Origin: Bdellovibrionota bacterium
Lineage (GTDB): Bacteria; Bdellovibrionota; Bdellovibrionia; Bdellovibrionales; UBA840
Direction of reading: 5' to 3'
DNA: 57,123 bases
Assembly (NCBI GenBank): GCA_036140815.1
Contig: JAYZXX010000223.1
Coordinates: forward strand, 1-57,123
Shown here one piece after another: positions 10,112 through 42,550 of the stretch. A model generated the notes under the pieces. The model saw only the letters and a program-made list of their open reading frames with translations, did not search any database and was not told the origin of the DNA. The position numbers and the translations under genes were made by a program. Every line of letters begins with the position of its first letter. Position 1 is the first letter of the stretch.

Positions 10112-10334
10112 AAAGTTACCATCATTTGCTTAAAACGATCTTGTTTAGAATTTCTATGAGTTCCTCAGTGGCTTTCGCTTATTTCAGTCGAATAAGTTTT
10201 TCAAAATTCTAATTTCACCATAAGAGTTTGGTGTAAGTATATGATATATCTTTGTTTTTTAATTACTTGTTTAGGGAATTCAATACTTGTAAAAAAGCCT
10301 AAATAAAGATCTTCATTGAGGAAATAGGCTAGCT

Positions 10335-22405: not shown

Positions 22406-23743
22406 ATGAAGATAGGCTCTTTTTTTCTTTGCGTTTTTATGTTTTCTAAGTTTGTCTTAGCTCAAGAAAACGCTCTTAAACCGAGAATATGGTACGATCC
22501 AAGTACTCGCTTTGCACAAAATTTGGTTAGAGAAATTTTGGTAGAGAAAGAGGCGAAACAGGCGGATCTATTTGACGTGGCTTTGCTCCATGAAGATGTT
22601 GGCTCTCGGTTTGGCGATCCTGTTAAAATAGAAAATCTCCGGGCGGGAGACAGTGTTATACTTAGCCAGTATTCAGAGCGTTTCTCCTGGCTTCTTGCCA
22701 AATGGGGAGAGTTCCTTCTTTATCCTGAAATCAATATTTACATAAATGTTGAAATCATGAGCTTAAAAAATATCGGCTATGGAAACAATTTTACAGAAAT
22801 GCAAATTTTGAGGGGGCTGCTGGCAAGTGGAGTCTTTCCTCATTTAAAAGTAATTGTTCATAATCGAGAAATGGCAGATTTTTTTCAAAAATATGTTCCT
22901 AGAAAACAAGTTTTGCAACTGCCGCATCCTGTAGAACTACTTGTTAAAAGCGAAGGAATCGAAAGAGCTCCCAATGATTCACGGACCTATCGTTTGCTGT
23001 ATTTAGGAACACCAGATGATTTTTATCCTGGAAGTGAATTTGATCGCTTTTTACAGCAATTGGCTAAAACTGGCCAACACATAGATTTAGTGTACGCTCC
23101 TCATCCAAATTTCTCTAATTCCAATGAAGCGCTACAGCTTCAATCCTTAGAGTTTTACTCTATAGGGGAAAGAGGAGATTCTAGGATTAAAGTTCAATTT
23201 GTGAACTCTATTGCTGAGACTGAGTTTAATAAACAAGTGGATAGAATAGTTCGAAAACAGTATGAAAATAAACCTATTGGAATTAATGACTATATGGAAA
23301 AGGACGAATCAAGAAAAGAAATAAGTAAATCTCTGATAAAAAACTATGAACTTAGCTCTTCCTATTTCACAAAGGTTGACTCTATTATTAGCAATGGCTC
23401 TACTCTTGGACATATAGCGAAAAAGCTTGGTCTTAGAGTATTTGAAGACGGAGTTGATTTTATTTTAAAAGCTGATTTTAAAAGTCGAGCCTTTGATGAA
23501 CAAAAGCTTTCCAATCAATTAGAGATCGCTAGAAGGCAAATGAATGAGTTTTACAAGGAAGCCTCCGATTTCTATTTTGATCATTTTACTGAAGTTTACT
23601 TAGAGCGAACTAATCCTTATGAGGATAGTCATAGAGCACACTATTTCCCTTTTGCAAGAAAGCTAGTCTCTAAAGGCCTTAATGTCATAGGTATATCGGG
23701 TAACTTTATATTCACTTGTATAAAGAGTGCTAGAAAAGAATAA
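22406..23743 (+). CDS. Exported protein with GT-B/TagF-like motifs
   Basis: Signal peptide ending VLA; LLYLGTP, VYAPHPN, DSIISNGSTLGHIAKKLGLRV. Confidence 0.5.
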   Translation: MKIGSFFLCVFMFSKFVLAQENALKPRIWYDPSTRFAQNLVREILVEKEAKQADLFDVALLHEDVGSRFGDPVKIENLRAGDSVILSQYSERFSWLLAKWGEFLLYPEINIYINVEIMSLKNIGYGNNFTEMQILRGLLASGVFPHLKVIVHNREMADFFQKYVPRKQVLQLPHPVELLVKSEGIERAPNDSRTYRLLYLGTPDDFYPGSEFDRFLQQLAKTGQHIDLVYAPHPNFSNSNEALQLQSLEFYSIGERGDSRIKVQFVNSIAETEFNKQVDRIVRKQYENKPIGINDYMEKDESRKEISKSLIKNYELSSSYFTKVDSIISNGSTLGHIAKKLGLRVFEDGVDFILKADFKSRAFDEQKLSNQLEIARRQMNEFYKEASDFYFDHFTEVYLERTNPYEDSHRAHYFPFARKLVSKGLNVIGISGNFIFTCIKSARKE

Positions 23744-23755
23744 ATAAGTCGAAAA

Positions 23756-26700
23756 CTACAACTTATCCGAGGCCTCAAATCCTTTGGTCAAAGAGCTTCT
23801 GCAAAAATTGGCAGGCCCTTCAAAGATTGGATAATTCCTAGCGAGATCTTCCATATTGAGAACGATGGCTTCTGTAAAAAGACTTCCACCTAATAGTATT
23901 CTGGAAAAACTTCTGGTTCCCAAGAGTGGTGTGCTCATGGATTTAAAGTTACTGAAGGCGATGTATTGAAAATTATAAAATATGGACATGAAGAAATCGA
24001 ATCCAAAGCGAAGTCTTAGCATGGAGTCTCTTACGTATTTTGAAGTGTAGGGATGAGCATGGTACTTCTCTGGGAGATCTCGAATCAACCATCCCTTGGA
24101 CTTTTCAAAGGCATTTTCGAACATCATTTTAAGCCCCATGATAGGGTTTAAAAATGCCACAATATAACCTGTAATGTATAGGTCCACATCAAAGCGTCCC
24201 ATCCAGTAGTATTGGTTTAAATTGTATAGAAAGAAAGAAGCTCCGATATTTGCCCAAACAATCTTAACATTGTAGGCCATGTTTTGGCTCCAACTATTAT
24301 CGCTGGCCCCCAGATTGTGATAAACATTTCCCCAAAAGCCTTTTTCGGCTAAGGCTCCAGTGGGAATGCTTTCAAAGCCTCCTAAGCGTTCAACTCTTGC
24401 GTACTGCTGTATTTTGTACCAAGCTTGATTTAAGAAGCTCATAACCATTCCATACATTAAGCCATTTAAAAACTGGTATCTAGATAGGTAGTTCCAAGAC
24501 TGATCTGAAAACTGTGTATCATGAATTGGCGCTAGCATTGGGTCGGTAATTGCGGCGGTAGCTGCAAAAACGAAAAGAATTTCGATGGGTTTACTTACAA
24601 TGAAATTCATTAAGGCAGAACGGGTGGCTCGGGCCATGGCCAAAGTGTTTTTCATTCCTTGCTTTACTTCTACATACCTTTTTGATTGAACAGAGCTTCT
24701 TTCGTCGAGACTTCTTGCGGATTTATATTTGTTATCCATGGCTAGGTTTACCAAAGACAGATATCCACTATAAGCTCGGTTTTTGGCCAATTGATAAATT
24801 CTTTCATCAATGCCGCTATTTTCTTTTTTGTTTACCGCATGATCATAGTTTCTCTGAAAAAAATCTTTTGTTGAGGAGTAAATTTCCTCATTTTTAATTA
24901 CAGAGTGATAGAGCCTAAGGGATAGTTCTCTTTCCATGGCGTAGTGACGATACCAGTAAAAAATGAGTCGAGATTTTAAGTTGAGACTAAAGATGGCCGG
25001 ATCTAATGCATCTGTAATATTGTTTGAGCTAAAAATTTTAAACTCATCCGTGTTTTTACTGTAACGTAGACTGGCTTTAATGCTTTCAGCAACTACAGAT
25101 TGTTCTAAGTTAATCTCTAAAGAAATTATCTCTTCTTCTAGTTGTCTACGGGCCTGTTTTTTTATGCTTTCTTTCGGAGGCGCAAGAAATCGAAGGTAAG
25201 AGATTTCACTGGCCCAATACAGGGCCTTATGAATGGGCCTAACGCCTATGATACCAGCTCTAAGTCCGCCATTTAGGTGGCTTGGTAGGTGAGCTCCTTT
25301 AAGGTAGGTGCCATTATCCGCTTTTGTTTGTGAACGCTCAAGGATCGTTGATAGATATCTAGGGTACATGACTAAATAGGCCCAAGTTCTAGGGCGAAAC
25401 GCCAAATTTGCATTTAGAAAAATATTATTCTTTAGCCATATGAAAAAGTTCTGTGTTTTTGTAAATGAAGAAAAACTAAATAAGAAGTGCATCAAAGCCC
25501 CGTGAAAAGTCCTTATTTGCTGAACACCTAGGTCTTTTTTAAAGCCTAAGCCCGACTTTAATTTTTCCACCATATTGAAGAAGCTTAGATTACTCGCAAA
25601 ATCTTTTGCTCTAGCTTGTTCTATTAATTCTAAAATTTCATGATCTTCTTCTAAGGTAAAATTGGTATGTGCACGATTGTAGGCCTTTTCCTCTGCCTCT
25701 GCCTGGAGTTTTATGTCTTTACGGCGGTCTAAGTTTTCGTTAACGATAAAGCGCTTTAATGCATTGGCTGTGCTTTCAAGGCCATCTCGAAACTTCCAGT
25801 AAAGTTTTGTTTTTTGTAGGAGTAAATATTCAGAAGCACTTCTTTGAGAGTTTCTCTCATGATTCACATTTACTAAAAAATTCTTAAGATATACTTGCTT
25901 TGTTTCTAAGCCGATTTTTACATCCAAAAATAGTTTATTGCCTAAAAGGCGGATGTAGTCAGGTCCTGTGAGATTGGAATACCTCATTGAGAAGTATAGT
26001 TCTTTAAAGAATCTATATCGAGCTTCGTCTTCTTTTTCTTTGGTCTTGTTGGTAAATTTATTCCTTAATTTGTCAATGTCTTTCAGAAGAATCACGGAAT
26101 TTACAGTGAGGTGAGCGACACCTATAATATAAAAGCCAAGTTCTATCAAAGAAGCAAAGCCAGCAGCTGTTTTTGATAAGCGTCCATCCGCAACGTAAGT
26201 TTCATACAACACATTTGGGTTAAAGCCACGCAAGGTCTTTGAAGTGGCTTCTCCGGCTAGATATAATAGGTCTGTGGTTTTATTGTAAATTGCATCGAGA
26301 CTATCACTGGCCAAGCGTAGACTCTCAAGAGTAAAGCTTGCGGTTGATTCTGGATAAAGTAGGGCAGCAGCAGCGGCAACACTTATAGCACTCCCGTAAC
26401 GAAATCTTTTAAAGCTAGCCATTTGATAAAAAGCTTCCATAAAACCTTGGTGATTTCTATCTTTGATTGCAATTGCACTTTCAATAATTGCTTCTTTAAA
26501 TATATGACTTCCGTTAGGTCTAGGAACACTAAGAAATAGTTTGAGACGCTTAAATCGATAGCTGAGTCGTCGCATTTCTTTTGCATTTTCTTGTTGTGCC
26601 ATTTGTTTGTTAGTGAATTCTTCTCCGTAGAGCTTCATTGCCTGAAGACTGCTAGCGATTTTCATTTCAATGGAGTCATCTTTAATTCGATCCATTAAGT

Positions 26701-27511
26701 CTTGGCTTTTAATCTGGGATTTTAGATCTTTGGTGATTTCAGAGACCAGGTTTTTTCGTTCACTAGAAGGGATGGTTTTGCTTTGTTCACTTTGGATTCG
26801 GTTAATATTTGTCTGAAAGCTTTCTGAAAACTCTTCGATAATATAAGAATGTTGACCAATGCGTTCTCTATCTAAGAAATTAATAGATGTAGAAAAAGCC
26901 ATTTGGTTTAAAGTGGAAATTTCTTTGAGTTGGTCTAAGTGAAAGCTTTTGTTTCCTAACCTAATTCCATAATCTTCTAGGCTCAAATTTCGCCTTAGAT
27001 TTCCACCGGGAAACTTAAAAAGAGCGAGGTCAACTTTGCCGGCTCTCTGGAAGTTTAAATCGATGAAGTGAATTTCACCTGTTTTTTCTCTTAAAAATAA
27101 AAAGCCTTCGAACAAAAGGATTTCAGAAATGGGAATAAAAAAGTCATGTACTTTTAAATTATTTATTTTGAATTGGAAGCTCTGGGCTTGTTCTTCATTA
27201 AATTGATAATGAAAGCTTCGACCGTCCAGGCGCTCTGATACTTTTGTAGCTTCAATTTCTAAGATCAGGTCTTTAAAAGACACTTCTTTTTGAATGCTAT
27301 AGGTTTTTTGTCTTAAAAGTGAGTATGGATCTAGCGGGTGTTTGCCTCGAGTTAAAATGGCCGATCGAAGACTTTGTAATTCATTTTCCGCGCTTGTTGT
27401 TGGCGCTTCATTTTCGGCGGCAACGGCTTTTGGATTTGAATGTATGAGCCCACCAAATACCAACTGAAAAATTAGTAAGTAGTTGATTAGCCCTAGGCTA
27501 AGTTTTCCCAA
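23756..27511 (-). CDS. Giant hypothetical exported membrane protein (1251 aa)
   Basis: TTG start with GAGGA SD; signal peptide ending AVA; several hydrophobic helices in central and C-terminal parts. Confidence 0.8.
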   Translation of the reverse strand: MGKLSLGLINYLLIFQLVFGGLIHSNPKAVAAENEAPTTSAENELQSLRSAILTRGKHPLDPYSLLRQKTYSIQKEVSFKDLILEIEATKVSERLDGRSFHYQFNEEQAQSFQFKINNLKVHDFFIPISEILLFEGFLFLREKTGEIHFIDLNFQRAGKVDLALFKFPGGNLRRNLSLEDYGIRLGNKSFHLDQLKEISTLNQMAFSTSINFLDRERIGQHSYIIEEFSESFQTNINRIQSEQSKTIPSSERKNLVSEITKDLKSQIKSQDLMDRIKDDSIEMKIASSLQAMKLYGEEFTNKQMAQQENAKEMRRLSYRFKRLKLFLSVPRPNGSHIFKEAIIESAIAIKDRNHQGFMEAFYQMASFKRFRYGSAISVAAAAALLYPESTASFTLESLRLASDSLDAIYNKTTDLLYLAGEATSKTLRGFNPNVLYETYVADGRLSKTAAGFASLIELGFYIIGVAHLTVNSVILLKDIDKLRNKFTNKTKEKEDEARYRFFKELYFSMRYSNLTGPDYIRLLGNKLFLDVKIGLETKQVYLKNFLVNVNHERNSQRSASEYLLLQKTKLYWKFRDGLESTANALKRFIVNENLDRRKDIKLQAEAEEKAYNRAHTNFTLEEDHEILELIEQARAKDFASNLSFFNMVEKLKSGLGFKKDLGVQQIRTFHGALMHFLFSFSSFTKTQNFFIWLKNNIFLNANLAFRPRTWAYLVMYPRYLSTILERSQTKADNGTYLKGAHLPSHLNGGLRAGIIGVRPIHKALYWASEISYLRFLAPPKESIKKQARRQLEEEIISLEINLEQSVVAESIKASLRYSKNTDEFKIFSSNNITDALDPAIFSLNLKSRLIFYWYRHYAMERELSLRLYHSVIKNEEIYSSTKDFFQRNYDHAVNKKENSGIDERIYQLAKNRAYSGYLSLVNLAMDNKYKSARSLDERSSVQSKRYVEVKQGMKNTLAMARATRSALMNFIVSKPIEILFVFAATAAITDPMLAPIHDTQFSDQSWNYLSRYQFLNGLMYGMVMSFLNQAWYKIQQYARVERLGGFESIPTGALAEKGFWGNVYHNLGASDNSWSQNMAYNVKIVWANIGASFFLYNLNQYYWMGRFDVDLYITGYIVAFLNPIMGLKMMFENAFEKSKGWLIRDLPEKYHAHPYTSKYVRDSMLRLRFGFDFFMSIFYNFQYIAFSNFKSMSTPLLGTRSFSRILLGGSLFTEAIVLNMEDLARNYPIFEGPANFCRSSLTKGFEASDKL

Positions 27512-27735
27512 TACGTCCTCGATTTTCTTAGAGGCGTAGAATAACTTATTTGACGAGCTAAAGTCTCAAAATTATTATTGAATTAGAAAATTTTCCTGGT
27601 TTGATTAGTTTCTTTTAGATGTTTACCCCTTTCTCAGCTTTGTGTAAGTGCCTAAAAATAGGTTGGATTATATTTAGAGTTGGAAAGCTTCTGGAGTTTT
27701 TAGTTTTATTGTAAAGTTTAGGGTTTAAGAAGCCC

Positions 27736-27927
27736 GGATTCATTGCAATGTTTTTCTCGAAGGACGCGTACCTCCATGTAATCGCCGGTTTCGACCGCTG
27801 GTCAACTTTGCTAATATACTAAGCTCGAGCTTCTTTGTTGGCCTAGGAATTTTTAGGAAGTATTTTTTGCGGATCGATCGCTTTTTGCAAACCGGAGGTC
27901 CTTCGAGAAAAACATTTCAATGAATCC
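27736..27927. repeat. 192-bp element with 30-bp terminal inverted repeats
   Basis: GGATTCATTGCAATGTTTTTCTCGAAGGAC (27736-27765) vs 27898-27927, 29/30 complementary. Confidence 0.85.
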
Positions 27928-28806
27928 TCTTGCTAATATCGAGAGAAATTTTGACACTTATTTGAGAAAGAATCAGATGTTTCATTTTTAATGGAAATCT
28001 TAGCTGGATACAATTGGCTTAGGGCAAGCTCGTTCGTAATTAGTAGTTTTCTAAGCTTTTTGTTGATTTAAGATTGTATAAACTAGTTCACTCAGTTACG
28101 GAAAACCCGGGTAAGCTACATAATTTCAATCTTTTTCAATTATAATCGGTTTTTTTAGTGAATTTCAAATTGATTCAATGATTTTAAAATTGTAGCTATC
28201 ACTCATTCGCAATTAAAGGGGGCAATTCCTAAAACACTCATTACTGAGTCATAGTTTTTGAATCATATGAAGACTGAAAAAACATAATTGGTGTTATTTT
28301 GTTTGGAGTTTGTTTGGAAAACCAATTTACTATGAGAAAAATTTTAAATTGAAACTCAGTGGTTGAATTTAGTAATAAGCTCTTGTTGGCCTCGGTTCGA
28401 TCTAGATAGTTAATCAGGTAAAACTTATAAAAGCGAATATTATTTTATCGCTTTCATATTGGAAAAGATTTTCGAGCCTTAGGGACAAGACCCTTTTTGT
28501 TTAAGTGGCTAGTATTGCGAGGAAAATTAGATTTTCATGATTTTAATTTTGGTGTTTAGCTTTTGGTTTTTGAAAAAGCGTTTAAAAAGAAGCTCTCAAA
28601 TGGGGCTTTGAGAGCTAAGTAATTACTACCAAGTTCATAAGCTAATTTTATGACAAATAAAATAAGAGCTAAGTTTAAGTATTTTAGAGCTTTTTGCCAT
28701 TAGAAAAACTCATATAAAAAATACCAAATTGAAAATTGTAACTGGTACAAACTAAATCTTTCTATTATTACTAACTCCTTAATAACTTTGATTGGGTGAG
28801 TGTTGT

Positions 28807-31800
28807 ATGGGGATTTTAAAACATCTTTTATCGCAAATTTTAATTTTTCAATTTTTACTTCTACCAATTCCTAGAAGTGCTTTCGCTGCGGATAATTCTA
28901 GTGGTTCTAATTCTGCTGGATATGACTCTAGCGGAGCTAATCTTGGAGGATTCAATTTTTCTGATCCAGCGGCGATGAAAGAGGCTTTGTCAGACGGTAA
29001 GCTTCAAGAGCTTTCGCCTGAGATCTATCAACACATTCAAGATCAAAAACAAATGATTGAAAAGTTTGAAAGTGGTGAGCTTTCGCAAGTGGAAATTCGT
29101 AAGTTTGACTATACGAATGTTACTCAACAGAGCCTTGAGTATTATAATTTCAATAAAGACATTTGGGTGGATATTGATTTCCATAAAGATAAAACTCGAC
29201 TTAGAAAAATTGCTTACACTCGTTTAGATTATGAAATCACCGATGGTGTTTTGAGTGTAGTTGCTTACCAAGGAAACCAAAAGGTTGCCAGGCAAATGTT
29301 CTATGGTCTGGATGTAGTAAGTGTTGTTCGTGATGCAGAGTTTTTGATGATGATTTCTAGAGATGGAAGTATGCATGCTGTATTCATGCCTCTCGCCGCC
29401 TCACATATGTTCCGATCTCCAGTTTTTGTGACTAAGAATATCATTAATCTTCCAAAGGAAGTAAATTCTAATGCTTTAAAAGCAAGTTTCTTGCACCGTG
29501 GATTACGTCCCATTGATTTTACAAATCGTCTGATATCGGAATCTTCTGAAAGTGCCATCTTTAAAACAGACCATGCCGGTAGGCCGCTCGTAGATTTTGG
29601 CGATTTGGCGGTTGAAAACTCGGAGACCGGTGAATTAGTCGGTGTGTTCTCTAGAAAAGTAATGTATTCCCGCGTTTTGAATATGGTAGAATCATTGATG
29701 CGTCAGTTGCTTGTTACTGCACCTGAAGTTCTCCCAGCGGATGTCTTGAAAGCAGCAGCTGACTCCTTTTTAAAAGCTAAGGATATAGATCTTTCTAGTG
29801 AAAAAACTGAAAGAGAGCAGGCGGAAGTCGCGCAAAGAATCATGAGTCAGAAGTTGGACAAAGGATTAATCGCCGCGGTGATGAAGGTTGCTGGTGAGAT
29901 TGAGGGCTTAGAGTCTAGAGATGTAGATCGTGCAACTTATGAAGAGTGGGTTGGCAAATGGGTTACTTATGATGAAAGAGCCAAAGAGCTTGCTAAAGAA
30001 TATGAAGATCGCAAAGGTGAAAAGTTATACACAAAGTTAAAAAAATCTGCAGGTTCAATTGTTAATAAACTTGCTGGTGAAGTGACTGCTCCTAAGGTAT
30101 TTGTTGATTCTGAGCTAGATTACCAAAATTTATTAAAACAGATCTCAGAAAAAGATTATGGTCCACGTTCAGGTGGAGCCAGTATTCTTTGGCAAGATAT
30201 CGAGAAGGAAAATAGTTTGTCTGAAGAATTGCAGGTTCGAAGTAATTTACTGCAAAGAACAGCGAGTATTTTGAAAAAACCAATGGTCGCTATCACATTG
30301 GTTGGAATTTTAAGTGGATATCATGTATTGAGCCACTATTCAGAATTACAATTTAAAGCCACGGCCTGGTTGACCAATGAGGCAATGCCAAAGGTTTTAA
30401 CAGATTTTGATTATGTTGGACCAAATGGCGAAAAAGCAAATTACGCTAAGATTCTTGGCTTGTCAGTGATTTCTCTTACTCTTCTGATTCCAATCGCTAT
30501 GTTGGTTTCTTGGGTTTCCGTTCCAAGCATGAGGTTAGTGGCTAAGGCATTAAAGAAAGTAGATCCAGAACGTTCTGCTAAATTAGAGCACGCCGCTGAA
30601 GACTGGAAAAATCTTAATGTGTGGCAAAGAATTGTAACCATGGGTTTTCGAATCTTTGCAGTGATTTGCTTGCCATTTTTCCATTACTTAGCTCTGTATA
30701 CCAATCAGAGGAATTTAATCCCTACAATGAAAATGGGATTGAATCCTTTTAAAGTAGTGAAAAATGATAAGGGAGAAAGACACTTCTTAGGGCTTAACCT
30801 TCCGATTCAAACGAAAAAAAGTATTTTGGATATGCCGGAGTCTGTTTCTAAATTTTTCAAACAATTCCAAGAGGGAAAGCTTTCTAAGGAAGATTTTGCG
30901 AGTCTCGGAAAAGACGCCTTAGATACACTTACTCCAAGTCTTGGCAAGTACGGAAGTTTTTCTGAGGCAAAGCAAGATTACAAAGATCGTTTAGGTTATA
31001 AAGGAGGTAAAGCTTGGTACTCTGCAGAAGCTTTAAAGCATCGTTTGGGAGCGCCATTTTCTGCTGAAGGAAACTCTTTCATATTTGATGCACTCCTTTC
31101 GCATGATAGTAGGACCGCTCAAATTGCTGAAATGCAAAGAGATGCTTTGGGTAAAGAAGTTGGTGCTCGTGAGAGAGCATCAAGCATTGCTTGGATACTT
31201 GCGACAAAAATTGTGGCCAGTGAAAGCAACATTGATCTAGCAACCCTTATGACGGTCACATCTGAAGGTATTGATCCATCTGAAACTGAAAAGATTTTCT
31301 CTGATCCTAACTTAAAGAGAGCTTGGCAAAAACACGTCTATGAAATTCAGGAGCTTTTGGTTAACTTTGACGTAATTTATGATGAGAAAAAAGCGCAGGA
31401 TATCGATTTAAAAGAAGTGATTCGAATTTATGAGTCTGTTTTAGAGGTGTCAGAAGAAATTAATAGCCGCTCGACCTATCAGAATGTCGTTAAAAATATG
31501 AAGATGAATTCTATCATTGGAACGAGAAAAGCCATTTCTGGTCTCGCTACTTTTGCTGTGGCCGATAATGAGTTTCTAAAAAGAAATTTTGCCAATAAGG
31601 TTGTTTCTGGTTTGGTGTCAAAAGAGTTCACAACAGATCATATGGGTGTTGTAGGTATTCCAGCTGTGCTAGGTGAAAGAGCCGATATTAATAAGCAAGG
31701 CGAGCTAAGTGCAATTAATAATCCTTGGTACTTATGGACTCACCCAGAGCACATTCAAGATGTATTGAACAATATGTCTCTTCATTTTTTCCAAGCAGGT

Positions 31801-32904
31801 TCGCAAACCGCTTTGGCTATTCAAGGAGAGCCAAAGGTAAATGAAACGAAGTATGGTCCTATGGAATTGATTCGATACGCTAGTATGGATCGTGCAGAGC
31901 CATTTTTTGAATCGAGCTATTTGTGGTTTAAGTCCATAGCTGAAAGCCGTGATGCTGGTGAGATTTTCTTTAAGAAAATGTTGTCAAAACGTCTCGTTAC
32001 AGCTCAAGGATCAATGCTTCTGAGTGTAATCTTCCGTGTGTTGGTTGCAAAGCAAAGCCTGGGTATGGCGCTTTCTGGTTGGTATTATTTTTGGATCGCT
32101 GGACCGTTACTGTACGCCTGGCCATGGACTTTAATTCTTCTTGGAATGCAAGGAGAGGAAGATCGTATTAGCGAGAATATTTCTAGATTCAATAAGGAAA
32201 AAATGAAACTTGTGAATGCTAGAAGATTAAGCTCAGACGCTGAACTCCGAAATAAGATTCGAGGATTTCTTGATTTTTATAAAGGGGAAACCGAGTTTTT
32301 ATATCGCGGTTTTGTTCATACTTTGTTAACTCATCGAGGGATTTATAATCACTCTTTGCAGAGAATTAAGACTCAAAAAGAATTTAATAAGTACCTTTCT
32401 ATGAGTGGATTTACCAAAGGGGATATCTCTAGCTATGAGAGGGATCTTGAGGAAATTATTGAAAAAGCAGATCGTAGTCAGTTAAATGAGTTAGTAGAGA
32501 GATCTTTAGAGTATTCTGTGAAACATCCTGCTGTTTATACGAATGTACATGCCGCGATTGGCTGGCTAACTGTTGTAGGGCTAGGTGCGGTCTTAACCAC
32601 GGTTTTGGCCATTAGTGTTGGGGTTGACTCCTTTAATCCTGAAACTCTCCATTGGAGCAATCTGCTTTGGTGGACTGGGGTTCACACAAGCTTTACCTTC
32701 GCAGTTAGAGCTGCGTTGAGAAATCGTTCATTGATCGATATTAGTAAAAGTTTTTATCGTTCGGTGAAGTATTCCTTGAGGTATTTAAATTCTTTCCCTG
32801 GGAAGCAAGATCGTGCAACAAGATACTATTTCGATAAGGTTAAGGAAAATGCTAAGCAGAAAGTGGAAAATGTTAAAATGGCATGTAGAAGAGCCGCCAG
32901 TTAA
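28807..32904 (+). CDS. Giant hypothetical exported membrane protein (~1365 aa)
   Basis: ATG 28807 preferred; signal peptide ending AFA; two clusters of hydrophobic helices. Confidence 0.8.
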   Translation: MGILKHLLSQILIFQFLLLPIPRSAFAADNSSGSNSAGYDSSGANLGGFNFSDPAAMKEALSDGKLQELSPEIYQHIQDQKQMIEKFESGELSQVEIRKFDYTNVTQQSLEYYNFNKDIWVDIDFHKDKTRLRKIAYTRLDYEITDGVLSVVAYQGNQKVARQMFYGLDVVSVVRDAEFLMMISRDGSMHAVFMPLAASHMFRSPVFVTKNIINLPKEVNSNALKASFLHRGLRPIDFTNRLISESSESAIFKTDHAGRPLVDFGDLAVENSETGELVGVFSRKVMYSRVLNMVESLMRQLLVTAPEVLPADVLKAAADSFLKAKDIDLSSEKTEREQAEVAQRIMSQKLDKGLIAAVMKVAGEIEGLESRDVDRATYEEWVGKWVTYDERAKELAKEYEDRKGEKLYTKLKKSAGSIVNKLAGEVTAPKVFVDSELDYQNLLKQISEKDYGPRSGGASILWQDIEKENSLSEELQVRSNLLQRTASILKKPMVAITLVGILSGYHVLSHYSELQFKATAWLTNEAMPKVLTDFDYVGPNGEKANYAKILGLSVISLTLLIPIAMLVSWVSVPSMRLVAKALKKVDPERSAKLEHAAEDWKNLNVWQRIVTMGFRIFAVICLPFFHYLALYTNQRNLIPTMKMGLNPFKVVKNDKGERHFLGLNLPIQTKKSILDMPESVSKFFKQFQEGKLSKEDFASLGKDALDTLTPSLGKYGSFSEAKQDYKDRLGYKGGKAWYSAEALKHRLGAPFSAEGNSFIFDALLSHDSRTAQIAEMQRDALGKEVGARERASSIAWILATKIVASESNIDLATLMTVTSEGIDPSETEKIFSDPNLKRAWQKHVYEIQELLVNFDVIYDEKKAQDIDLKEVIRIYESVLEVSEEINSRSTYQNVVKNMKMNSIIGTRKAISGLATFAVADNEFLKRNFANKVVSGLVSKEFTTDHMGVVGIPAVLGERADINKQGELSAINNPWYLWTHPEHIQDVLNNMSLHFFQAGSQTALAIQGEPKVNETKYGPMELIRYASMDRAEPFFESSYLWFKSIAESRDAGEIFFKKMLSKRLVTAQGSMLLSVIFRVLVAKQSLGMALSGWYYFWIAGPLLYAWPWTLILLGMQGEEDRISENISRFNKEKMKLVNARRLSSDAELRNKIRGFLDFYKGETEFLYRGFVHTLLTHRGIYNHSLQRIKTQKEFNKYLSMSGFTKGDISSYERDLEEIIEKADRSQLNELVERSLEYSVKHPAVYTNVHAAIGWLTVVGLGAVLTTVLAISVGVDSFNPETLHWSNLLWWTGVHTSFTFAVRAALRNRSLIDISKSFYRSVKYSLRYLNSFPGKQDRATRYYFDKVKENAKQKVENVKMACRRAAS

Positions 32905-32936
32905 TTTCCAATGGAATTTAAAAAAATAATTAATAT

Positions 32937-32962
32937 AAGGCATCTCTCGAGATGCCTTTTTT
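32937..32962 (+). terminator. Intrinsic terminator
   Basis: AAGGCATCTC-T-CGAGATGCCTTTTTT. Confidence 0.8.
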
Positions 32963-33009
32963 GTTTTTTATGATCTAGTCAGGGCTTGATGCTGTTTTTC
33001 TAGTTTGTT

Positions 33010-34008
33010 TTAAAACATTAAATTAAGAGCGGGGAGATATACCGCTGAACTGTCTTTCTTACGAATACTAATGTTAATTGCCACCACATCCCACCAAGTG
33101 TGTAAAAAGGCCGACTCTCTGATGCTCCAGCCATTTCTTTGAGTTAACCAACCCAAGTAGTAACCCATCGCTGCTTGGGCTATGGGAAAAGGATTATCAG
33201 AAGAATAGTGTAGAGCACCAAAGATAGCACTGGAGCTCAGGTTGGCGTAAACATTTGAATTCATTTTATAGCGAAAATAGGGTTGTAAAAAGCCTCTGAA
33301 AAGAGCTTCTTCACCTACACCAGCTTGGTAAGATAATAAACTGCCTGAGAATATTGTACTAGCATCTCCTAGAGGACGATCGTTCTCATCAAGCTCACTA
33401 TTATCATCTTGAGATAGGGCTAGGAATTGCGCTCCCAAGCCAAAAATAACAGCCAAGGGAATCCATGTGGTTTTCTTTTTAAGGTGGCTAAAATCAAAGG
33501 GCGCTAACATAATATCGCCTACTTCATCATCGCCTGTATCTTTAATAAAGGCGAACTCACCGGTGTTTTCATAGGCCTTGATTCTTGATCTAAAGCTTTG
33601 GTAAGCGCTCAAGCTACCTACGAAATCATAGGTTTTACTACCAATTACTCTTCTTTGCATATTTTCATCAAAGTACTTGAATGGATCAGAGATGCTATGG
33701 TCCACATTGTCTTCTTCGGCATTGTACATGGAAATACCAGCGGCAGCACTTAAACTGTAAGTTAATCCGGCTTGCCAATTTCCTTGAATGTATTGTCCTA
33801 ATCCAGGAAGAAACCAAGATCCTAAACTAGGCAAAAAGATTAAGCATGGTCGATCCGTCCTTGCTTTGTAGCTTGAATGAAAATACGAGATACTTTCTTT
33901 TGCTGGATCACTTTCGTTTTTAGCTTCGGAGGAAGCATTTGCTGAGTTAGCTAGGCATTGCAGACTTAATAATAATATAAGAGAAGTGGTGATTAATGAC
34001 TTTAACAA
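33010..34008 (-). CDS. CPBP (Abi/CAAX protease) family intramembrane metalloprotease
   Basis: GEEALFRG, FGALHY, HTWWD motifs; N-terminal signal peptide. Confidence 0.88.
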   Translation of the reverse strand: MLKSLITTSLILLLSLQCLANSANASSEAKNESDPAKESISYFHSSYKARTDRPCLIFLPSLGSWFLPGLGQYIQGNWQAGLTYSLSAAAGISMYNAEEDNVDHSISDPFKYFDENMQRRVIGSKTYDFVGSLSAYQSFRSRIKAYENTGEFAFIKDTGDDEVGDIMLAPFDFSHLKKKTTWIPLAVIFGLGAQFLALSQDDNSELDENDRPLGDASTIFSGSLLSYQAGVGEEALFRGFLQPYFRYKMNSNVYANLSSSAIFGALHYSSDNPFPIAQAAMGYYLGWLTQRNGWSIRESAFLHTWWDVVAINISIRKKDSSAVYLPALNLMF

Positions 34009-34397: not shown

Positions 34398-34922
34398 ATG
34401 CCTAATAAAAACTTGAAGGTACTCGTCGGTGTTGTCGCGCTAGTGTTGATTGCTGGCCTGGCTGTTTTTATGAAACCGCCTATAGGTTACAATCAGGGCT
34501 ACCAGCCTACGCAACCAATCCCTTATGATCATTCGCTACATGCAGGAAAATTGGAAATTCCGTGTCAATATTGTCACTCCAATGCGTCCTATGCTCGTCA
34601 CTCTTCAGTGCCAGCATTGAACATCTGTATGAACTGTCACAACCAGGTGAAAACGCAAAGTGAGCACATTAAAAAGCTTGCTGATCACTATAACGAAGGT
34701 AAATCCATTCAGTGGCAAAAAGTACATTTGCTTCCTGATTTTGTTCACTTCAACCACCAAAGACACGTAAGAAGAGGCGTTGCTTGTCAAACTTGTCATG
34801 GTCCAATCGAAACGATGAAAGAAGTATTTCAATACTCGGATCTATCGATGGGTTGGTGTGTAAACTGTCACCGTAAACCAGAAAACAATGCGCCAGTGTC
34901 TTGTTCAACTTGTCACTATTAG
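34398..34922 (+). CDS. actA: Alternative complex III pentaheme cytochrome c
   Basis: One TM helix and five CxxCH motifs; QPIPYDHSLH, LPDFVHFNHQRH, SMGWCVNCH. Confidence 0.92.
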   Translation: MPNKNLKVLVGVVALVLIAGLAVFMKPPIGYNQGYQPTQPIPYDHSLHAGKLEIPCQYCHSNASYARHSSVPALNICMNCHNQVKTQSEHIKKLADHYNEGKSIQWQKVHLLPDFVHFNHQRHVRRGVACQTCHGPIETMKEVFQYSDLSMGWCVNCHRKPENNAPVSCSTCHY

Positions 34923-34928
34923 GATCAG

Positions 34929-38023
<3,095 letters not shown>

Positions 38024-38024
<1 letters not shown>

Positions 38025-39382
38025 TGCTTGGACGTAGTAAACTCGTACTTGGAGACAAATCATTTAAAGATATCACTGAGGATATCTGTGCGCCATTAGA
38101 GACTTTGCCAGGTAAGCCTTGGCTAATGATGTTTGGTGCGGCTAAGACCACTTTGTTATTCTATTTCGGTGTATTGTTTTATATCGCTTACACCGGTATG
38201 GGAACAATGGGGGTTAGTCACCCAATCATGTGGGGTACTGATATCGTAACTTTCGTATTCTGGGTGGGTATTGGTCACGCAGGTACATTGATTTCAGCGA
38301 TTCTATTTCTATTTAGACAAAAATGGCGTACAGGGATTGCCCGTGCGGCCGAGGCCATGACTGTATTTGCTGTAATGACAGCGGGTATTTTCCCACTAAT
38401 GCATACGGGGCGCCCATGGTTAGCATTTTGGTTGTTCCCTTATCCTAACCAACGTGGACCATTGTGGGTGAACTTTAGATCTCCTCTACTTTGGGACGTT
38501 TTTGCGGTATCTACTTATGCTACAGTTTCAATTGTATTTTGGTATGTAGGTTTGATCCCAGATTTCGCAACGGTTCGAGATAGAGCGAAAAACACTCTTC
38601 GTAAGAACATTTACGGTGCCCTTTCCATGGGTTGGAGAGGAACAAACCGTAACTGGCGTCATTATGAAATGGTTTACTTACTACTTGCTGGTTTAAGTAC
38701 TCCACTAGTTTTATCAGTTCATACCATCGTATCCTTTGACTTTGCTGTTGCAAACTTACCTGGATGGCATACTACGATCTTCCCACCATACTTCATTGCT
38801 GGTGCGATTTTCTCTGGTTTTGCTATGGTTGTAACTTTAATGACTCTTGTGAGAATTGGTTTTCCACAAATTAAAGACTACATCACTTTAGATCACTTAG
38901 AGGTAATGAACAAAATCATCATGACCACAGGTATGATGGTTGGTTATGCTTACGGGTCTGAGTTTTTCATTGCTTGGTATTCAGGGGTTGAGTTTGAGAA
39001 ATTTGCTTTCGTTAACCGTGCTTTCGGACCAATGGGTTGGTCATACTGGATTATGGTTAGTTGTAACGTAATCTCTCCGCAGGTTTTCTGGTTTAAGAAG
39101 TTCCGTAGAAGCATCCCAGTTATGTTTGTTGTTTCAATTATCGTAAATATTGGTATGTGGTTTGAGCGTTTCGTAATTACCATGTCTCTTCACAGAGACT
39201 TCCTACCTGCAAACTGGGCTGTGTTCCACTTTAAGTTTGCTGACGTAGGTGTATTAGTAGGTAGTTTCGGTATGTTTTTCACTTTATTCTTATTGTTCTT
39301 AAGAGCTTTCCCAATGGTATCTATGTCTGAGGTTAAACCTTGTCTAGAAGTTGGAAGAGACGGAGGTGGACACCATGAGTAA
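38024..39382 (+). CDS. actC: Alternative complex III ActC (NrfD/PsrC family)
   Basis: [57 protein letters not shown]. Confidence 0.94.
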
Positions 39383-39899
39383 GTATGTATCTGGTGTAGT
39401 TGGATTCATTGAAGACGATCATAAATTATTAGCAGCTGCTAAAAAAACTTACGCTGCTGGATACAGAGAGTTTGATACCATTTCTCCATTCCCGATTCAT
39501 GGAATGGACGCAGCAATGGGTTTAGGTCGGTCTGCAATTCCTTGGGTAACTTTCTTTGCTGGCTTAACTGGTTGTAGCTTTGGGCTTTGGTTCACTTGGT
39601 GGACTTCAGCGGTAGACTATCCAGTAAATGTTGGTGGTAAGCCTTTTATGTCTTTACCAGCATTTATCCCAATTTTATTTGAATTAACTATTTTATTTGG
39701 TGCTTTAAGTTCAGTGGGTGCAATGTTCATCCTAAATGGTCTTCCAAAGGTGAAGCCTCCGGTGATTGACCCTGATCTAACATGTAGCAAGTTTGCTCTT
39801 TTTATTCCAGAGACAGAGACTGGTTACAATCCTGAGAAAGCAGAAAGCCACCTTAAATCTATCGGTGCTACCGATATTAGAAGAGTAGCGGAGTTTTAA
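39375..39899 (+). CDS. actD: Alternative complex III ActD (DUF3341)
   Basis: [27 protein letters not shown]; ATG 39375 overlaps the actC stop. Confidence 0.9.
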
Positions 39900-40433
39900 A
39901 TGAAAAGTGTATTGCTATTAACAAGTTTGTTGTTAGGCTTGGCTGCCTGTAAGAAAGATCAGCCAAATGTGGAGTTAGTGCAAAACATGATGGACTCTCC
40001 TGCCTTTGAAGAACAAGATTTTGATCCAAATGCAAATGATGGTCGTTCTATGCGAGTTCCACCTGAGCATACAGTAGCGAGAAATAACCCTCGTTATAAA
40101 TATGCTAAGCAACCTGAGTTGGCTAAGGCGATGCCAAATCCTTTCAAAGATAAAATTGATCTAGAGAAAGGCAAGGATAAGTTCGAAACTTATTGCATGG
40201 TTTGTCACGGTCAAACAGGTAAAGGTGAAGGAACGGTCGCTGAGTACATGGCTCTTAAACCACCATCCTTAGTAAGTGATAAGATCAAAGGCTGGACGGA
40301 TGGTGAAATCTATCACATCATCGCCGCGGGTCGTGGTTTGATGGGTTCTTATGCCAGTCAAATTCGTCACGAAGATCGTTGGCACATTGTAAATTACGTA
40401 CGTGAACTTCAAAAGAAAGATTCAGGGAATTAA
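39900..40433 (+). CDS. actE: Alternative complex III ActE monoheme cytochrome c lipoprotein
   Basis: Lipobox LAAC, CMVCH, MGSYA, DRWHIVNYVRELQ. Confidence 0.9.
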   Translation: MKSVLLLTSLLLGLAACKKDQPNVELVQNMMDSPAFEEQDFDPNANDGRSMRVPPEHTVARNNPRYKYAKQPELAKAMPNPFKDKIDLEKGKDKFETYCMVCHGQTGKGEGTVAEYMALKPPSLVSDKIKGWTDGEIYHIIAAGRGLMGSYASQIRHEDRWHIVNYVRELQKKDSGN

Positions 40434-40434
40434 G

Positions 40435-41634
40435 ATGGCTCAAGATATTAATGTTCCAAAATATAAAATGAGCCCTGCTACTAAAACAGTGGTTTGGGTA
40501 TGCGCCTTGGTTGGATTACTTACTTTTCTTTTTGGGATCTACAACAATCCTGAAAGAGTTTGGTACTCTTATCTAACTAGTTTTTTCTACTTCACAAGCT
40601 TAAGCCTTTGTGGACTATTCTTTGTTGCAATCAATCACATCACAAGTGCTGGTTGGTCCGTAAATATAAGAAGGGTTCCGGAGGCCTTTACAGCATTCTT
40701 ACCATATGTATTGGTAGGGGCTATTGTTTTGATCATTGGTGCTGACTTTATTTACCCTTGGTTAAATCCTGAAATCGTTGCCGTAGATACTTTGATTCAA
40801 AAGAAAGTTTCTTACTTAAATGAAGGCTTTTTCATTTTTCGTGTAATTGCTTTTATTTTACTTTGGTTGTTCTTTGCTAAAAAGATTGTAGGGAACAGTT
40901 TGAAGCAAGACGAGACGGGCGATGTTAACTTAACACACAAAAATTTAGCCTTGAGTGTTGGTTTTATTGTTGTTTTTGCGCTTTCTTATTCTTTGTTTAG
41001 CGTTGATACTTTGATGTCAGTAGATCCACATTGGTTTTCTACAATTTTTGGGGTTTACGCATTCTCTGGTTTATTCCAGAGTGGTCTAGCAATGATGATT
41101 CTTTTTATCTTGGCTCTTAAGTCTGGCTATTTAAAATCATTCATTAACGATGACCATGTACATGATATGGGTAAGTTCTTATTTGGTTTTACAATTTTCT
41201 ATGCTTACATTGCATTCTCTCAGTACTTATTGATTTGGTATGCAAACTTACCAGAGGAAACCATTTTCTATATCCATAGAAGCCATGGAGGATGGGAGTG
41301 GGTTAGTTTATCACTTCTTTTTGGTAAATTTATTATTCCTTTTCTAGCTCTTGCGCCTGCATGGGCAAAGAAAAAACCTGGGCATCTTAAAATTGTATGC
41401 GTATGGATTTTGATCATGCAATACGTAGATTTCTACTGGCTTGTTTATCCGAACTTGCACACAAATACGAACGGAATGTTCCCAGAGACGCCAATTTTTA
41501 ACTTCTATGAAATTGGTATTTTCTTAGGATTCCTTGGTTTGTTCTTGTTTGCAGTTAATAAGTTCTTGGAAAAGAATTCTTTGATTCCAATCAAGGACCC
41601 AAGATTACATGAGAGTATGCATCACCATATTTAA
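40435..41634 (+). CDS. actF: Alternative complex III ActF membrane subunit
   Basis: MSVDPHWFSTIFG, HDMGKFLFGF, FSQYLLIWYANLPEET; ATG at 40435. Confidence 0.9.
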   Translation: MAQDINVPKYKMSPATKTVVWVCALVGLLTFLFGIYNNPERVWYSYLTSFFYFTSLSLCGLFFVAINHITSAGWSVNIRRVPEAFTAFLPYVLVGAIVLIIGADFIYPWLNPEIVAVDTLIQKKVSYLNEGFFIFRVIAFILLWLFFAKKIVGNSLKQDETGDVNLTHKNLALSVGFIVVFALSYSLFSVDTLMSVDPHWFSTIFGVYAFSGLFQSGLAMMILFILALKSGYLKSFINDDHVHDMGKFLFGFTIFYAYIAFSQYLLIWYANLPEETIFYIHRSHGGWEWVSLSLLFGKFIIPFLALAPAWAKKKPGHLKIVCVWILIMQYVDFYWLVYPNLHTNTNGMFPETPIFNFYEIGIFLGFLGLFLFAVNKFLEKNSLIPIKDPRLHESMHHHI

Positions 41635-41761: not shown

Positions 41762-42550
41762 TTGTTTAAACTTTTATTGCTATTGGTTCTTTTTCCAGTG
41801 TTTTCGGAAGCCGTAATTTGTAAGTACGCTTCTGGAATTCGTTTAGAAGAACGCCTTCAAAAAATAGATCGTGTACAAAGCTATACTGTTCCTGAAAAGT
41901 CTTTTTTTACGGGAAAAACCAATTTTAGGCCTTTGATTAGAGATTTCATATGGCACTTTGACTTGCATCCAGAGTACTCTTTTTTATTTCCAAATGGAAA
42001 GGGTTCAAAGATCAGTGTTGCAGTTCACACTTTAAGGACGATGCGTAGGCTGAGGCATCAGATAGAGACGGGTTCAATTTCTATTTCAAAGCCACTTTTT
42101 GATAAATATGAAAGGGCCATGTATATGGCATTAATGATACATGATGTTGCTAAAACATATGCATATAAATCTGGAGACAACTTAAATCAACTGCCAATGA
42201 ATTTGAAATTAGCTAGTCGAATAACCGACAAATTTGATGGGCTTGCGTCTGAAGAGAAGCTTTTCATTAAAGCAATTTTAAAATCTGCAAAAATAGGAAT
42301 TTACCTCCAAGCCAAAGTGGGTTCAGAAGAATTACTGATGGCAAATTTTGAGGGTGCGCTCACAACGAATATGAAAAACACACAGTACCTTCGTTTTATG
42401 GAAACCTTTTTTTTAGCGGATGCAGGCTCATATTCTCACCTTGCTAGTAATATTGAAATCATGGAAATTGATCGCTTTGGGGGATTAAAAATTGCCAGCC
42501 CAGTCTGGAGAAATTTTTTATCTCGCTATCCAGAGGACTTATTTTATTAA
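41762..42550 (+). CDS. Exported HD-domain-like protein
   Basis: Signal peptide ending SEA; H...HD...D pattern (VHTL, IHDVAK, LADAGSY). Confidence 0.55.
   Translation: MFKLLLLLVLFPVFSEAVICKYASGIRLEERLQKIDRVQSYTVPEKSFFTGKTNFRPLIRDFIWHFDLHPEYSFLFPNGKGSKISVAVHTLRTMRRLRHQIETGSISISKPLFDKYERAMYMALMIHDVAKTYAYKSGDNLNQLPMNLKLASRITDKFDGLASEEKLFIKAILKSAKIGIYLQAKVGSEELLMANFEGALTTNMKNTQYLRFMETFFLADAGSYSHLASNIEIMEIDRFGGLKIASPVWRNFLSRYPEDLFY

Follow-up and report, generated by a model that had tools for sequence, protein, structure and literature searches.

Unrelated exported proteins of a Bdellovibrio-like bacterium apparently share a one-cysteine motif at either end

According to recent work on these systems, MYXO-CTERM, JDVT-CTERM, Synerg-CTERM and CGP-CTERM are sorting signals paired with myxosortases of the CPBP family, Rce1-type enzymes cleave short tails behind a lipidated Cys, and cleavage by MrtX requires an invariant Cys (Haft 2023 preprint; Guo, Haft and Wall, mBio 2025). 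Here we analysed a stretch of 57,123 nucleotides from a Bdellovibrionota bacterium (the window), in which a CPBP protease gene adjoins three genes for exported proteins with a Cys close to the C-terminus (Table 1). A literature search found no description of the motif around this Cys, and the either-end Cys tag described below is apparently a previously undescribed address or attachment label.

Table 1 Features of the window and their coordinates
Feature	Position	Strand	Description
Gene A	22406..23743	+	445-aa exported orphan protein, C-terminal tag
Gene B	23756..27511	−	1251 aa, signal peptide and several hydrophobic segments
B-C intergenic region	27512..28791	no strand	1.28 kb, AT-rich, divergent genes on either side
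Gene C	28807..32904	+	1365 aa (or from a TTG start at 28792), signal peptide and hydrophobic segments
CPBP / Rce1-like intramembrane protease gene	33010..34008	−	332 aa, PF02517 match
N-tagged exported orphan protein	41762..42550	+	262 aa, CKYAS directly behind the signal peptide

The reading frames and Cys-bearing C-terminal ends that the initial annotation had assigned to genes A, B and C all proved correct. Gene A ends in CIKSARKE (23717-23740; Cys codon 23717-23719, Cys at -8), and its sole further Cys sits inside the signal peptide. The tail of gene B, CRSSLTKGFEASDKL, holds the single Cys of the whole protein (residue 1237, codon 23801-23803, at -15), and gene C carries CRRAAS at its C-terminus (Cys codon 32884-32886, Cys at -6) together with one additional Cys within a hydrophobic segment. 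The three proteins are mutually dissimilar (best BLASTP E values 0.34 and 11). Given their several hydrophobic segments, the tails of B and C could face the cytoplasm. Profile searches assigned gene A to no Pfam or NCBIfam family; it had no match in genome G001 and a single weak one in G005, with the tail CSKVY... The protein at 41762, likewise without a Pfam or NCBIfam family, contains one Cys only (residue 20, codon 41819-41821), within CKYAS, which is retained in the G001 orthologue. Another N-terminal example proposed earlier, LLLCVSNL at 52919, falls where no ORF of at least 60 aa was called. The B-C intergenic region contains a 30-nt inverted repeat (27736-27765 / 27898-27927) and no ORF longer than 55 aa, and an Rfam search of the entire window returned nothing at gathering score.

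Simple rules of our own gave 2935 ORFs with a length of 100 aa or more across the genome, and signal peptides were called by our own hydrophobicity heuristic rather than by a trained predictor. The C-terminal motif, scored as C-x-x-[ST]-[AGST] wherever its Cys stood 5-9 residues before the end, was present in 42 of the 2935 ORFs, compared with 4.83 +/- 2.21 (maximum 14) when the last 60 residues were permuted 1000 times, and with 0, 7, 4, 4 and 3 matches at five control offsets. Twenty ORFs had the Cys of C..[ST][AGST] at -6, 11 had it at -7 and 7 had it at -8, with about 1.15 expected per position from the interior rate. A hydrophobic N-terminal core preceded the tag in 33 of the 42 and was absent in 2, the remaining 7 being cut by a contig end. 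The residue at +1 was R in 15/42 and K in 10/42, and most +1 and +2 residues were K, R, S or N; those before the Cys were often small, chiefly Ser, and only 4-14 residues, predominantly polar or basic, followed it. At the other end, 65 non-lipobox matches lay 0-25 residues past the hydrophobic core (10.5 expected), 50 of them 5-14 residues past it, and CKYAS at 41762 belongs to this class. The annotators' idea of a mark usable at either end, and their proposed excess of terminal Cys over shuffled background, are thereby both borne out. The three tails of the window are instances of a short linear motif that recurs throughout the genome, with its Cys within ~10 residues of either mature end, and this bacterium has it on ~100 unrelated proteins predicted to be exported. 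Tagged genes also tended to lie close together, with 11 having a second tagged gene no more than two genes away (3.3 expected, P 0.007).

Chance, composition, an ORF-calling artefact or a DNA repeat could be the source of such a pattern, and our home-made ORF and signal peptide rules leave some room for it: a few matches are probably false (e.g. C2:102-740 and C115:5126-5860). However, the shuffle and offset controls exclude chance, and orthologues taken from independent assemblies and from a protein database retain the motif. The +3 Ser of the tags is encoded by TCN in 29 cases and AGY in 12, all four Ala codons are used, and the DNA downstream is unrelated from gene to gene; because of this synonymous codon diversity and unrelated 3' DNA, the tag is selected as a peptide and is not a DNA repeat. 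An origin of this kind is already refuted as far as computation can refute it, and we assign it a negligible probability.

The Cys is also kept across Bdellovibrionota orthologues, where its loss would have counted against the tag as first proposed. Same-genus counterparts retained it in 9/9 cases, some at just 43-58% overall identity, and the gene B family retained it 5-34 residues from the end in 12/12 members from 12 loci (own genome included). Conservation extended to an exported FtsH-like family (15/15 loci among relatives, 12/14 further loci across the phylum and 35/37 database homologues) and to an N-tagged PrkA-like family (3/3). For gene C, the G001 tail is identical, and all five more distant orthologues end in tails of the C-x-x-L-[FN] type (CVELF, CYGLF, CRLNY, CSRLF and CASLF).

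The residues after the Cys vary by lineage, from C-[KR/x]-x-S-[AS] in this genus to C-x-x-[LAVM]-[FL] in other Bdellovibrionota. In this genus S-[AS] is seen at both termini, and the +3 Ser is present even in gene B, whose family reads CRSSL or CRHSL here and C-x-x-[LVA]-[FLI] elsewhere. G004 combines the N-tags CRYLF and CVRLF with the C-tags CKSLF and CYGLF, G029 combines CRDLF and CVSLF with CSRIF and CRSLF, and the tags of G012 are CKAAL and CQKAL. As judged by eye from a handful of genomes with shared ancestry, the N- and C-terminal copies change together by lineage, implying that one partner recognises both. In G004, G007 and G029, samples of 320-390 kb contained no convincing C-tags and only 1-2 N-tags; because the tag is this rare there, outside this genus it could belong to a few families rather than act as a general signal.

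We give an even chance to the explanation that the tags are a recognition site offering a single thiol to a lineage-specific partner for a covalent step after Sec export. Sec export, for which signal peptides are predicted heuristically, would come first; a putative shared partner would then recognise the tag with its lone reactive thiol, and the cargo would be covalently tethered or routed, either through a mixed disulfide to a carrier or through S-lipidation. Clustering of 281 ORFs neighbouring tagged genes yielded no recurrent enzyme, the largest cluster being 6 response regulators, and the flanks of distant orthologues had no gene in common.

The cargo itself is diverse and poor in other cysteines. 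After tag removal, 51 tagged proteins fell into 48 BLAST clusters, and 69/95 tagged proteins had no second Cys past the core, compared with 265/1242 untagged ones (odds ratio 9.8, P 3e-24). The portable Cys tag on unrelated, Cys-poor, Sec-exported proteins, first suggested from the window, thus holds genome-wide, is selected at the protein level and is conserved. Cys counts in the exported proteins lean towards even numbers (0:301, 1:153, 2:198, 3:63, 4:109), which suggests an oxidising periplasm where a lone Cys is unusual. Many tagged proteins combine a signal peptide with a domain of cytoplasmic type. The cargo includes AAA+/M41 proteases, in which Walker A/B and HExxH are intact and a second membrane segment is missing; a J-domain that has HPD; kinases of the ABC1 and PrkA types; PLD (twice); a GT1 glycosyltransferase; an OlsF-like acyltransferase; an APP1 phosphatase; UDG; and M49 and S8 peptidases. 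Because many of these proteins need ATP, Hsp70, acyl donors or nucleotide sugars, they would likely act, in the end, inside a prey cell, in its cytoplasm or inner membrane. A second export step into prey is therefore plausible from domain content, and the tag may mark proteins bound for prey cells.

The same one-thiol property would also be expected if the tag played no part in sorting and served instead as a redox switch or as a handle for oligomerisation. The Cys would then either link two copies of a protein into a homodimer or enter a reversible disulfide by which effectors stay inactive in the oxidising periplasm until they reach a reducing compartment. [quoted passage not shown] We consider such a switch or handle unlikely; should the disulfide be made with a common carrier, it overlaps with the preferred recognition-site explanation.

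A slightly less probable account is a non-canonical lipoprotein signal, with one of two Lgt paralogues diacylglycerylating the tag Cys, so that membrane-anchored cargo could reach prey when membranes touch. Myxobacteria exchange lipid-anchored toxins having cytoplasmic targets, which offers a precedent; two tandem Lgt genes are present on contig C83, and the small residues, mainly Ser, frequent ahead of the Cys are compatible with such a signal. However, Lgt copy number does not track the tag, since genomes throughout the order, those of family f10 among them, have two copies, and a 400-kb sample of the one f10 genome covered (G104) lacked consistent tags. Moreover, charged residues separate the hydrophobic core from the N-tags, which lack a lipobox, and the C-terminal tags have no membrane segment that would present them to Lgt.

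The CPBP gene was identified correctly in the initial annotation: residues 222-309 match PF02517 with 53.3 bits (cut-off 22.4, E 3.5e-14), one of two PF02517 matches in this genome. The CPBP family has Rce1 as its founding member, and a CaaX-like pathway can be envisaged in which, once the terminal Cys carries a lipid, the neighbouring protease trims the tail, as myxosortases do on MYXO-CTERM proteins. The gene lies beside the three tagged genes, an arrangement kept in a same-genus relative; a search for exosortases or sortases gave no match in a genome with just two CPBP genes; and the properties of Rce1-type enzymes and MrtX given above would fit such processing. Nevertheless, the CPBP gene and gene C are convergent (gap 105 bp) and hence not co-transcribed, and close matches to this CPBP protein (E 1e-38 or better) occur in only 8/40 relatives. 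The 7 outside the genus have unrelated neighbours, none of them tagged, so the linkage expected in relatives is missing there. PF02517 is absent from 19/41 genomes, and among 19 relatives with a tagged family a close CPBP match is found in 3, while 11 are PF02517-free (G005, G014, G016, G023, G025, G031, G032, G034, G037, G039 and G040); conversely, 5 genomes have the close match and none of the tagged families searched. The protein also stayed below the cut-off of every myxosortase-type NCBIfam model (Mrt_core 14.5 vs 100, MrtJ 31 vs 75, MrtS 28.3 vs 130) and falls outside the MrtX/C/P core, MrtJ and MrtS subfamilies. Finally, a C-terminal CaaX-type protease cannot account for the ~65 N-terminal tags, where cleavage after the Cys would mean loss of the entire protein. 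The CaaX-like pathway thus appears improbable, the role of processing or neutralising enzyme once proposed for this gene finds no support, and the protease next to the tagged genes is unlikely to be their cognate enzyme.

Like MYXO-CTERM-type signals, the tag places an invariant Cys in a brief signature at the end of dozens of exported proteins that are unrelated to each other within one genome, here with a CPBP gene nearby. It differs in that no membrane helix follows, the tail being just 4-10 residues, and in that K/R residues stand directly after the Cys and form no Arg-rich stop-transfer cluster. It also occurs at the mature N-terminus, lacks the glycine-rich signature, and is tied to CPBP proteases neither by phylogeny nor by neighbourhood. 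No curated NCBIfam signal model matched genes A, B and C or 39 C-tagged and 21 N-tagged proteins, in searches whose hmmscan filters can miss very short models. The eukaryotic CaaX box, processed by a prenyltransferase and Rce1, similarly has an essential Cys in a helix-less tail near the C-terminus. The tag Cys, however, lies at -5 to -15 and never at -4, polar or basic residues occupy +1/+2 where the box has aliphatic ones, the proteins are predicted to be exported to the periplasmic side, and N-terminal copies exist. Like the bacterial lipobox (Lgt, LspA, Lnt), the N-tags have an invariant Cys, with small residues around it, close to where the mature part of a Sec-exported protein begins, but they lack a core-joined [LVI][ASTVI][GAS]C, having charged residues in between, and the motif is used at the C-terminus too; 133 ordinary lipobox-like proteins coexist with the tagged proteins, and the N-tags were counted after lipobox exclusion. 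As a functional analogy only, the tag may resemble the host-targeting motifs that follow the signal peptide in eukaryotic pathogens, namely RxLR, PEXEL and, in powdery-mildew effectors, the Y/F/WxC motif (PMC2886064): although the organism here is a bacterium and the motif is also C-terminal, in each case a short motif behind the signal peptide, in one of them containing a Cys, is carried by many fast-evolving, unrelated effector candidates.

The three adjacent exported-type genes A, B and C and the CPBP gene beside them matched their description in the initial annotation, which had proposed that a short motif with a single cysteine near either end of exported proteins (hereafter the tag; C-tag when C-terminal, N-tag when it follows the signal peptide) might be processed by the CPBP protein. 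Each of A, B and C begins with a signal-peptide-like segment; the three are mutually dissimilar in sequence, none matched a Pfam or NCBIfam family, and an ESM Atlas lookup with B gave no usable match. The CPBP and C genes are convergent and are therefore not co-transcribed. In the closest named relative, the MAG 'Bdellovibrionaceae bacterium UBA6502' (placed by NCBI in Bdellovibrionota, Bdellovibrionales, Pseudobdellovibrionaceae), the CPBP-C-B order and the tails are kept and gene A is missing. B and C are transcribed divergently, and the 1.28 kb that separate them contain no ORF but an inverted repeat, perhaps a regulatory hairpin or small mobile element; Rfam returned no match anywhere in the window. 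Directly adjoining the CPBP gene is a row of genes, kept in a same-genus relative, which, judging by its translated sequences, may resemble an alternative complex III (multihaem cytochrome c, molybdopterin/FeS subunit, membrane subunits and lipoprotein cytochrome). The same-genus relative G001 has an extra signal-peptide ORF immediately upstream of its CPBP gene, on the same strand and without a counterpart in the window.

Coordinates of the features discussed (G000, the genome of the window; G001, a same-genus relative; G178, a further Bdellovibrionota relative; C and L numbers, contigs and loci)
Feature	Location	Strand	Description
Gene A	window 22406-23743	+	445 aa; tail CIKSARKE; Cys at -8
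Gene B	window 23756-27511	-	1251 aa; tail CRSSLTKGFEASDKL; Cys at -15, the sole Cys of B
Gene C	window 28807-32904	+	1365 aa; tail CRRAAS; Cys at -6; TTG start possible at 28792
CPBP/Rce1-like protease	window 33010-34008	-	PF02517, 53.3 bits vs cut-off 22.4
Inverted repeat	window 27736-27765 / 27898-27927		30 nt; arms 97% complementary; spacing 132 nt
Gene row beside CPBP	window 34398-41634
N-tagged protein	window 41762-42550		tag CKYAS
FtsH/Hsp100-like giant, L071	G000 C16:23146-27297		1383 aa; signal peptide
FtsH/Hsp100-like giant, L081	G000 C103:9698-14074		1458 aa; signal peptide
N-tagged gene array	G000 C215:17470-27485		five consecutive genes of ~620 aa
C-tagged gene adjoining the array	G000 C215:14319-15326
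Second CPBP gene and two Lgt paralogues	G000 C83:4073-4786, 10196-10987, 11285-12019
Extra ORF	G001 L015 775-1500		241 aa
FtsH-like orthologue, L220	G178:C210:12394-15603		two in-frame TGA codons

Across the 3.66-Mb assembly of the window's own genome, in which 2935 ORFs (minimum length 100 aa) were called, a cysteine within the last 15 residues was observed 191 times among signal-peptide-like proteins, where their own Cys content predicts 126, and 246 times among the remaining proteins, where 295 were expected, with the terminal enrichment peaking at position -6. The pattern C..[ST][AGST] had its Cys at -6, -7 and -8 in 20, 11 and 7 ORFs, respectively (~1.15 expected per position). Taken from -5 to -9 it occurred in 42 ORFs, compared with 4.83 +/- 2.21 (maximum 14) when the last 60 residues were permuted 1000 times and with 0-7 ORFs at each of five control offsets, so that the genome-wide enrichment check proposed in the initial annotation came out in favour of a terminal motif. 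Its consensus reads [S]-C-[RK]-x-S-[AS]-x(1-3)-end. A hydrophobic N-terminal core is present in 33 of the 42, seven are cut by a contig end, and two have no core, at least one of these looking false. Together with nine relaxed variants picked by eye, B and C among them, these ORFs make up a C-tagged set of 51 proteins, which fell into 48 BLAST clusters after removal of the tag. Tagged genes also cluster along the genome, 11 having a second tagged gene within two genes (3.3 expected, P = 0.007). The conserved tag Ser is encoded by TCN in 29 cases and AGY in 12, all four Ala codons are in use, and the DNA past the stop codons is unrelated from gene to gene; this diversity rules out a DNA repeat as the source of the tag and indicates that it is maintained at the protein level.

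The proposal of an either-end tag was likewise borne out. We found 65 non-lipobox matches to C..[ST][AGST] at 0-25 residues past the hydrophobic core, against 10.5 expected from the interior rate; they include the window protein with the tag CKYAS, and 50 of them lie 5-14 residues past the core, approximately the signal peptidase I cleavage zone. Lipobox-like proteins formed a separate class (n = 133). One protein carried both an N-tag and a C-tag where ~2.5 were expected, and mutual exclusivity of the two was not significant. The tag Cys is the sole Cys after the core in 46 of the 65 N-tagged proteins, and 69 of 95 tagged proteins have no other Cys, compared with 265 of the 1242 untagged proteins that have a hydrophobic N-terminal core (odds ratio 9.8, P = 3e-24). 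Exported proteins of this genome overall are biased to even Cys numbers, as is typical of an oxidising periplasm. On contig C215, five consecutive genes are all N-tagged and adjoin a C-tagged gene; their similar sizes suggest that the five are paralogues, and the arrangement looks like an effector-type gene array.

The tag Cys is kept well outside this genus. Within the genus it was retained in all nine counterparts compared, seven of which fit C-x-x-S-[AGS]. The terminal Cys is present in 12/12 members of the B family, outside the genus as C-x-x-[LVA]-[FLI] and at times with a longer tail, and in 5/5 distant orthologues of C (CVELF, CYGLF, CRLNY, CSRLF and CASLF). An exported FtsH-like family ends in C-x-x-[LAIVMF]-[LF] outside the genus and keeps the Cys at 15/15 loci in relatives, in 35/37 database homologues (as the sole Cys past residue 30 in 27 of the 37) and at 12/14 further loci phylum-wide. 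At the other terminus, N-tagged PrkA-like proteins have it in 3/3 cases, with CAQLL and CDQLF behind the signal peptide outside the genus and CTKSA in a close homologue. By sampled genomes, the FtsH-like family reached into another order or class (9/20 of family f15 and 1/1 of f20), whereas f10 had it in 0/20. In one FtsH-like orthologue (L220) the reading crosses two in-frame TGA codons, which could reflect pseudogenisation, a sequencing error or recoding. At loci L128/L134 (relatives G014 and G034), the ORF that follows the FtsH-like gene encodes a signal-peptide protein of 196 aa whose C-terminus reads ...TCSYLFR; C-x-x-L-F therefore also occurs on small proteins in other genera.

As judged by eye in related genomes, each genome has one tag variant, common to unrelated proteins and to both termini. 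The window's genome and G001 have C-x-x-S/T-[AS] at both ends (CRSSL / CRHSL in B), relative G004 has CRYLF and CVRLF as N-tags and CKSLF and CYGLF as C-tags, and G029 has CRDLF and CVSLF as N-tags and CSRIF and CRSLF as C-tags; for G012 the C-tags were CKAAL and CQKAL and no N-tags were sampled. Parallel motif change of this kind in unrelated proteins, seen by eye and among related genomes, would be expected if these proteins had a recognition partner in common. Dense tagging is confined to this genus: a 240-kb sample of G001 contained one C-tag and six N-tags, samples of 320-390 kb each from G004, G007 and G029 contained 0 convincing C-tags and 1-2 N-tags, and a 400-kb sample of G104 (family f10) showed no consistent tag. 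The apparent absence of the tag from G004 and G007, obtained with a genus-specific regular expression, was overturned when orthologue tails revealed the other-genus variant.

The comparison with relatives also bears on whether the CPBP protein beside A-C is the processing enzyme of the tag. Its gene adjoins three tagged genes in an order preserved in the genus, and the window's genome has only two CPBP matches and none to exosortase or sortase; rhomboid matches numbered two, one of them being a short fragment. However, close CPBP matches (E 1e-38 or better) occur in only 8/40 relatives, the seven outside the genus have unrelated, untagged neighbours, and PF02517 was not found in 19/41 genomes. 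Among the 19 relatives with the B, C or FtsH-like tagged family, three have a close match and 11 lack any CPBP match, while five genomes have a close match without any of these families. Moreover, N-terminal tags are impossible substrates for a tail-trimming protease, and the protein scores under every curated myxosortase model. The link drawn in the initial annotation did not hold up: the CPBP protein is most likely a bystander, a genus-specific role being less likely, and adjacency alone is poor ground for assigning CPBP proteases to Cys tags.

No Pfam family was assigned to 31/43 C-tagged and 15/21 N-tagged proteins, and the families found were mostly of kinds that work in the cytoplasm. 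They comprise three FtsH-like giants that combine Hsp100-type AAA+ with M41 protease domains, a J-domain with HPD that follows the signal peptide immediately, ABC1 and PrkA kinases, two PLD enzymes, a GT1 glycosyltransferase, an OlsF-like acyltransferase, an APP1 phosphatidate phosphatase, a UDG-like domain, and M49 and S8 peptidases. Two of the giants (L071 and L081) are complete, with Walker A/B and HExxH; a signal peptide combined with the lack of a second membrane segment suggests that both are ATP-dependent proteases that are exported. No hydrophobic 19-mer past residue 40 was present in 33 of the 51 C-tagged proteins. Cargo that depends on ATP, Hsp70, acyl donors or nucleotide sugars and is nevertheless Sec-exported probably acts in another cell. 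Tagged proteins also diverge fast, counterparts within the genus being 43-90% identical.

These data fit a tag that is a terminal, accessible, single thiol within a short recognition motif, acting after Sec export. In our preferred reading the Cys would be captured covalently, through a mixed disulfide to a shared carrier or through S-lipidation, and capture would route or tether the cargo, probably towards prey; we give this proposal an even chance of being correct, and the data favour neither chemistry. Within 5 kb of the 51 tagged genes nothing recurred except common regulators, and no conserved neighbour was shared around the distant orthologues of B, C and the FtsH-like proteins. The window's genome has two DsbA-family matches, and its second CPBP gene and a tandem pair of Lgt paralogues are 5 kb apart. 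An Lgt match was found in 38/41 genomes, mostly two or three per genome; a second Lgt paralogue was dropped as the tag's partner because at least two Lgt matches occur order-wide, family f10 included, and Lgt copy number therefore does not discriminate. These Lgt, DsbA and neighbour searches, and the topology of B and C, which is ambiguous by hydropathy, bear weakly on mechanism.

A more specific version of covalent capture, which we regard as rather improbable, would make the tag the bacterial analogue of the motifs with which eukaryotic parasites target proteins to the host: with the terminal thiol as a handle, Sec-exported, Cys-free effectors would be joined by a disulfide to a shared carrier or translocator, carried over the prey envelope and set free once the disulfide is reduced in the prey's cytoplasm. 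This carrier might be a pilus-like or membrane-inserting protein, for which the tagged giants B and C are candidates, and the effectors would be the Hsp100/FtsH-like unfoldase-proteases, the J-protein, kinases and lipid-modifying enzymes. We know of no account of how Bdellovibrio-like predators move hydrolases or effectors from their own periplasm into prey; disulfide-coupled delivery, if true, would point to this long-sought protein route and provide a sequence rule for listing predator effectors. The motif marks ~100 exported proteins, ~3% of called ORFs, most of them orphans and the others enzymes that would make sense only within a different cell, and is both a ready list of candidate effectors and an experimental handle.

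A literature search, subscription-journal papers and preprint supplements aside, found no description of the motif, and the Haft preprint contains 0 mentions of Bdellovibrio or Bacteriovora. With MYXO-CTERM-type signals the tag has only an invariant Cys and portability in common; it shows neither the membrane helix nor the basic cluster of those signals, matches none of their models and has no cognate CPBP. It differs from a CaaX box in that its Cys is never at -4 and the next residues are non-aliphatic, and it is not a lipobox. In function it may come closest to the motifs that follow the signal peptide in effectors of eukaryotic parasites, among them the Y/F/WxC motif of powdery-mildew effectors (PMC2886064). 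The tag extends bacterial sorting or anchoring tags to a form without a membrane helix or a cognate CPBP and usable at either terminus; it belongs among the terminal Cys-containing tags on exported proteins, and is unusual there in its placement at either end, its lack of a helix and its lineage-tuned sequence.
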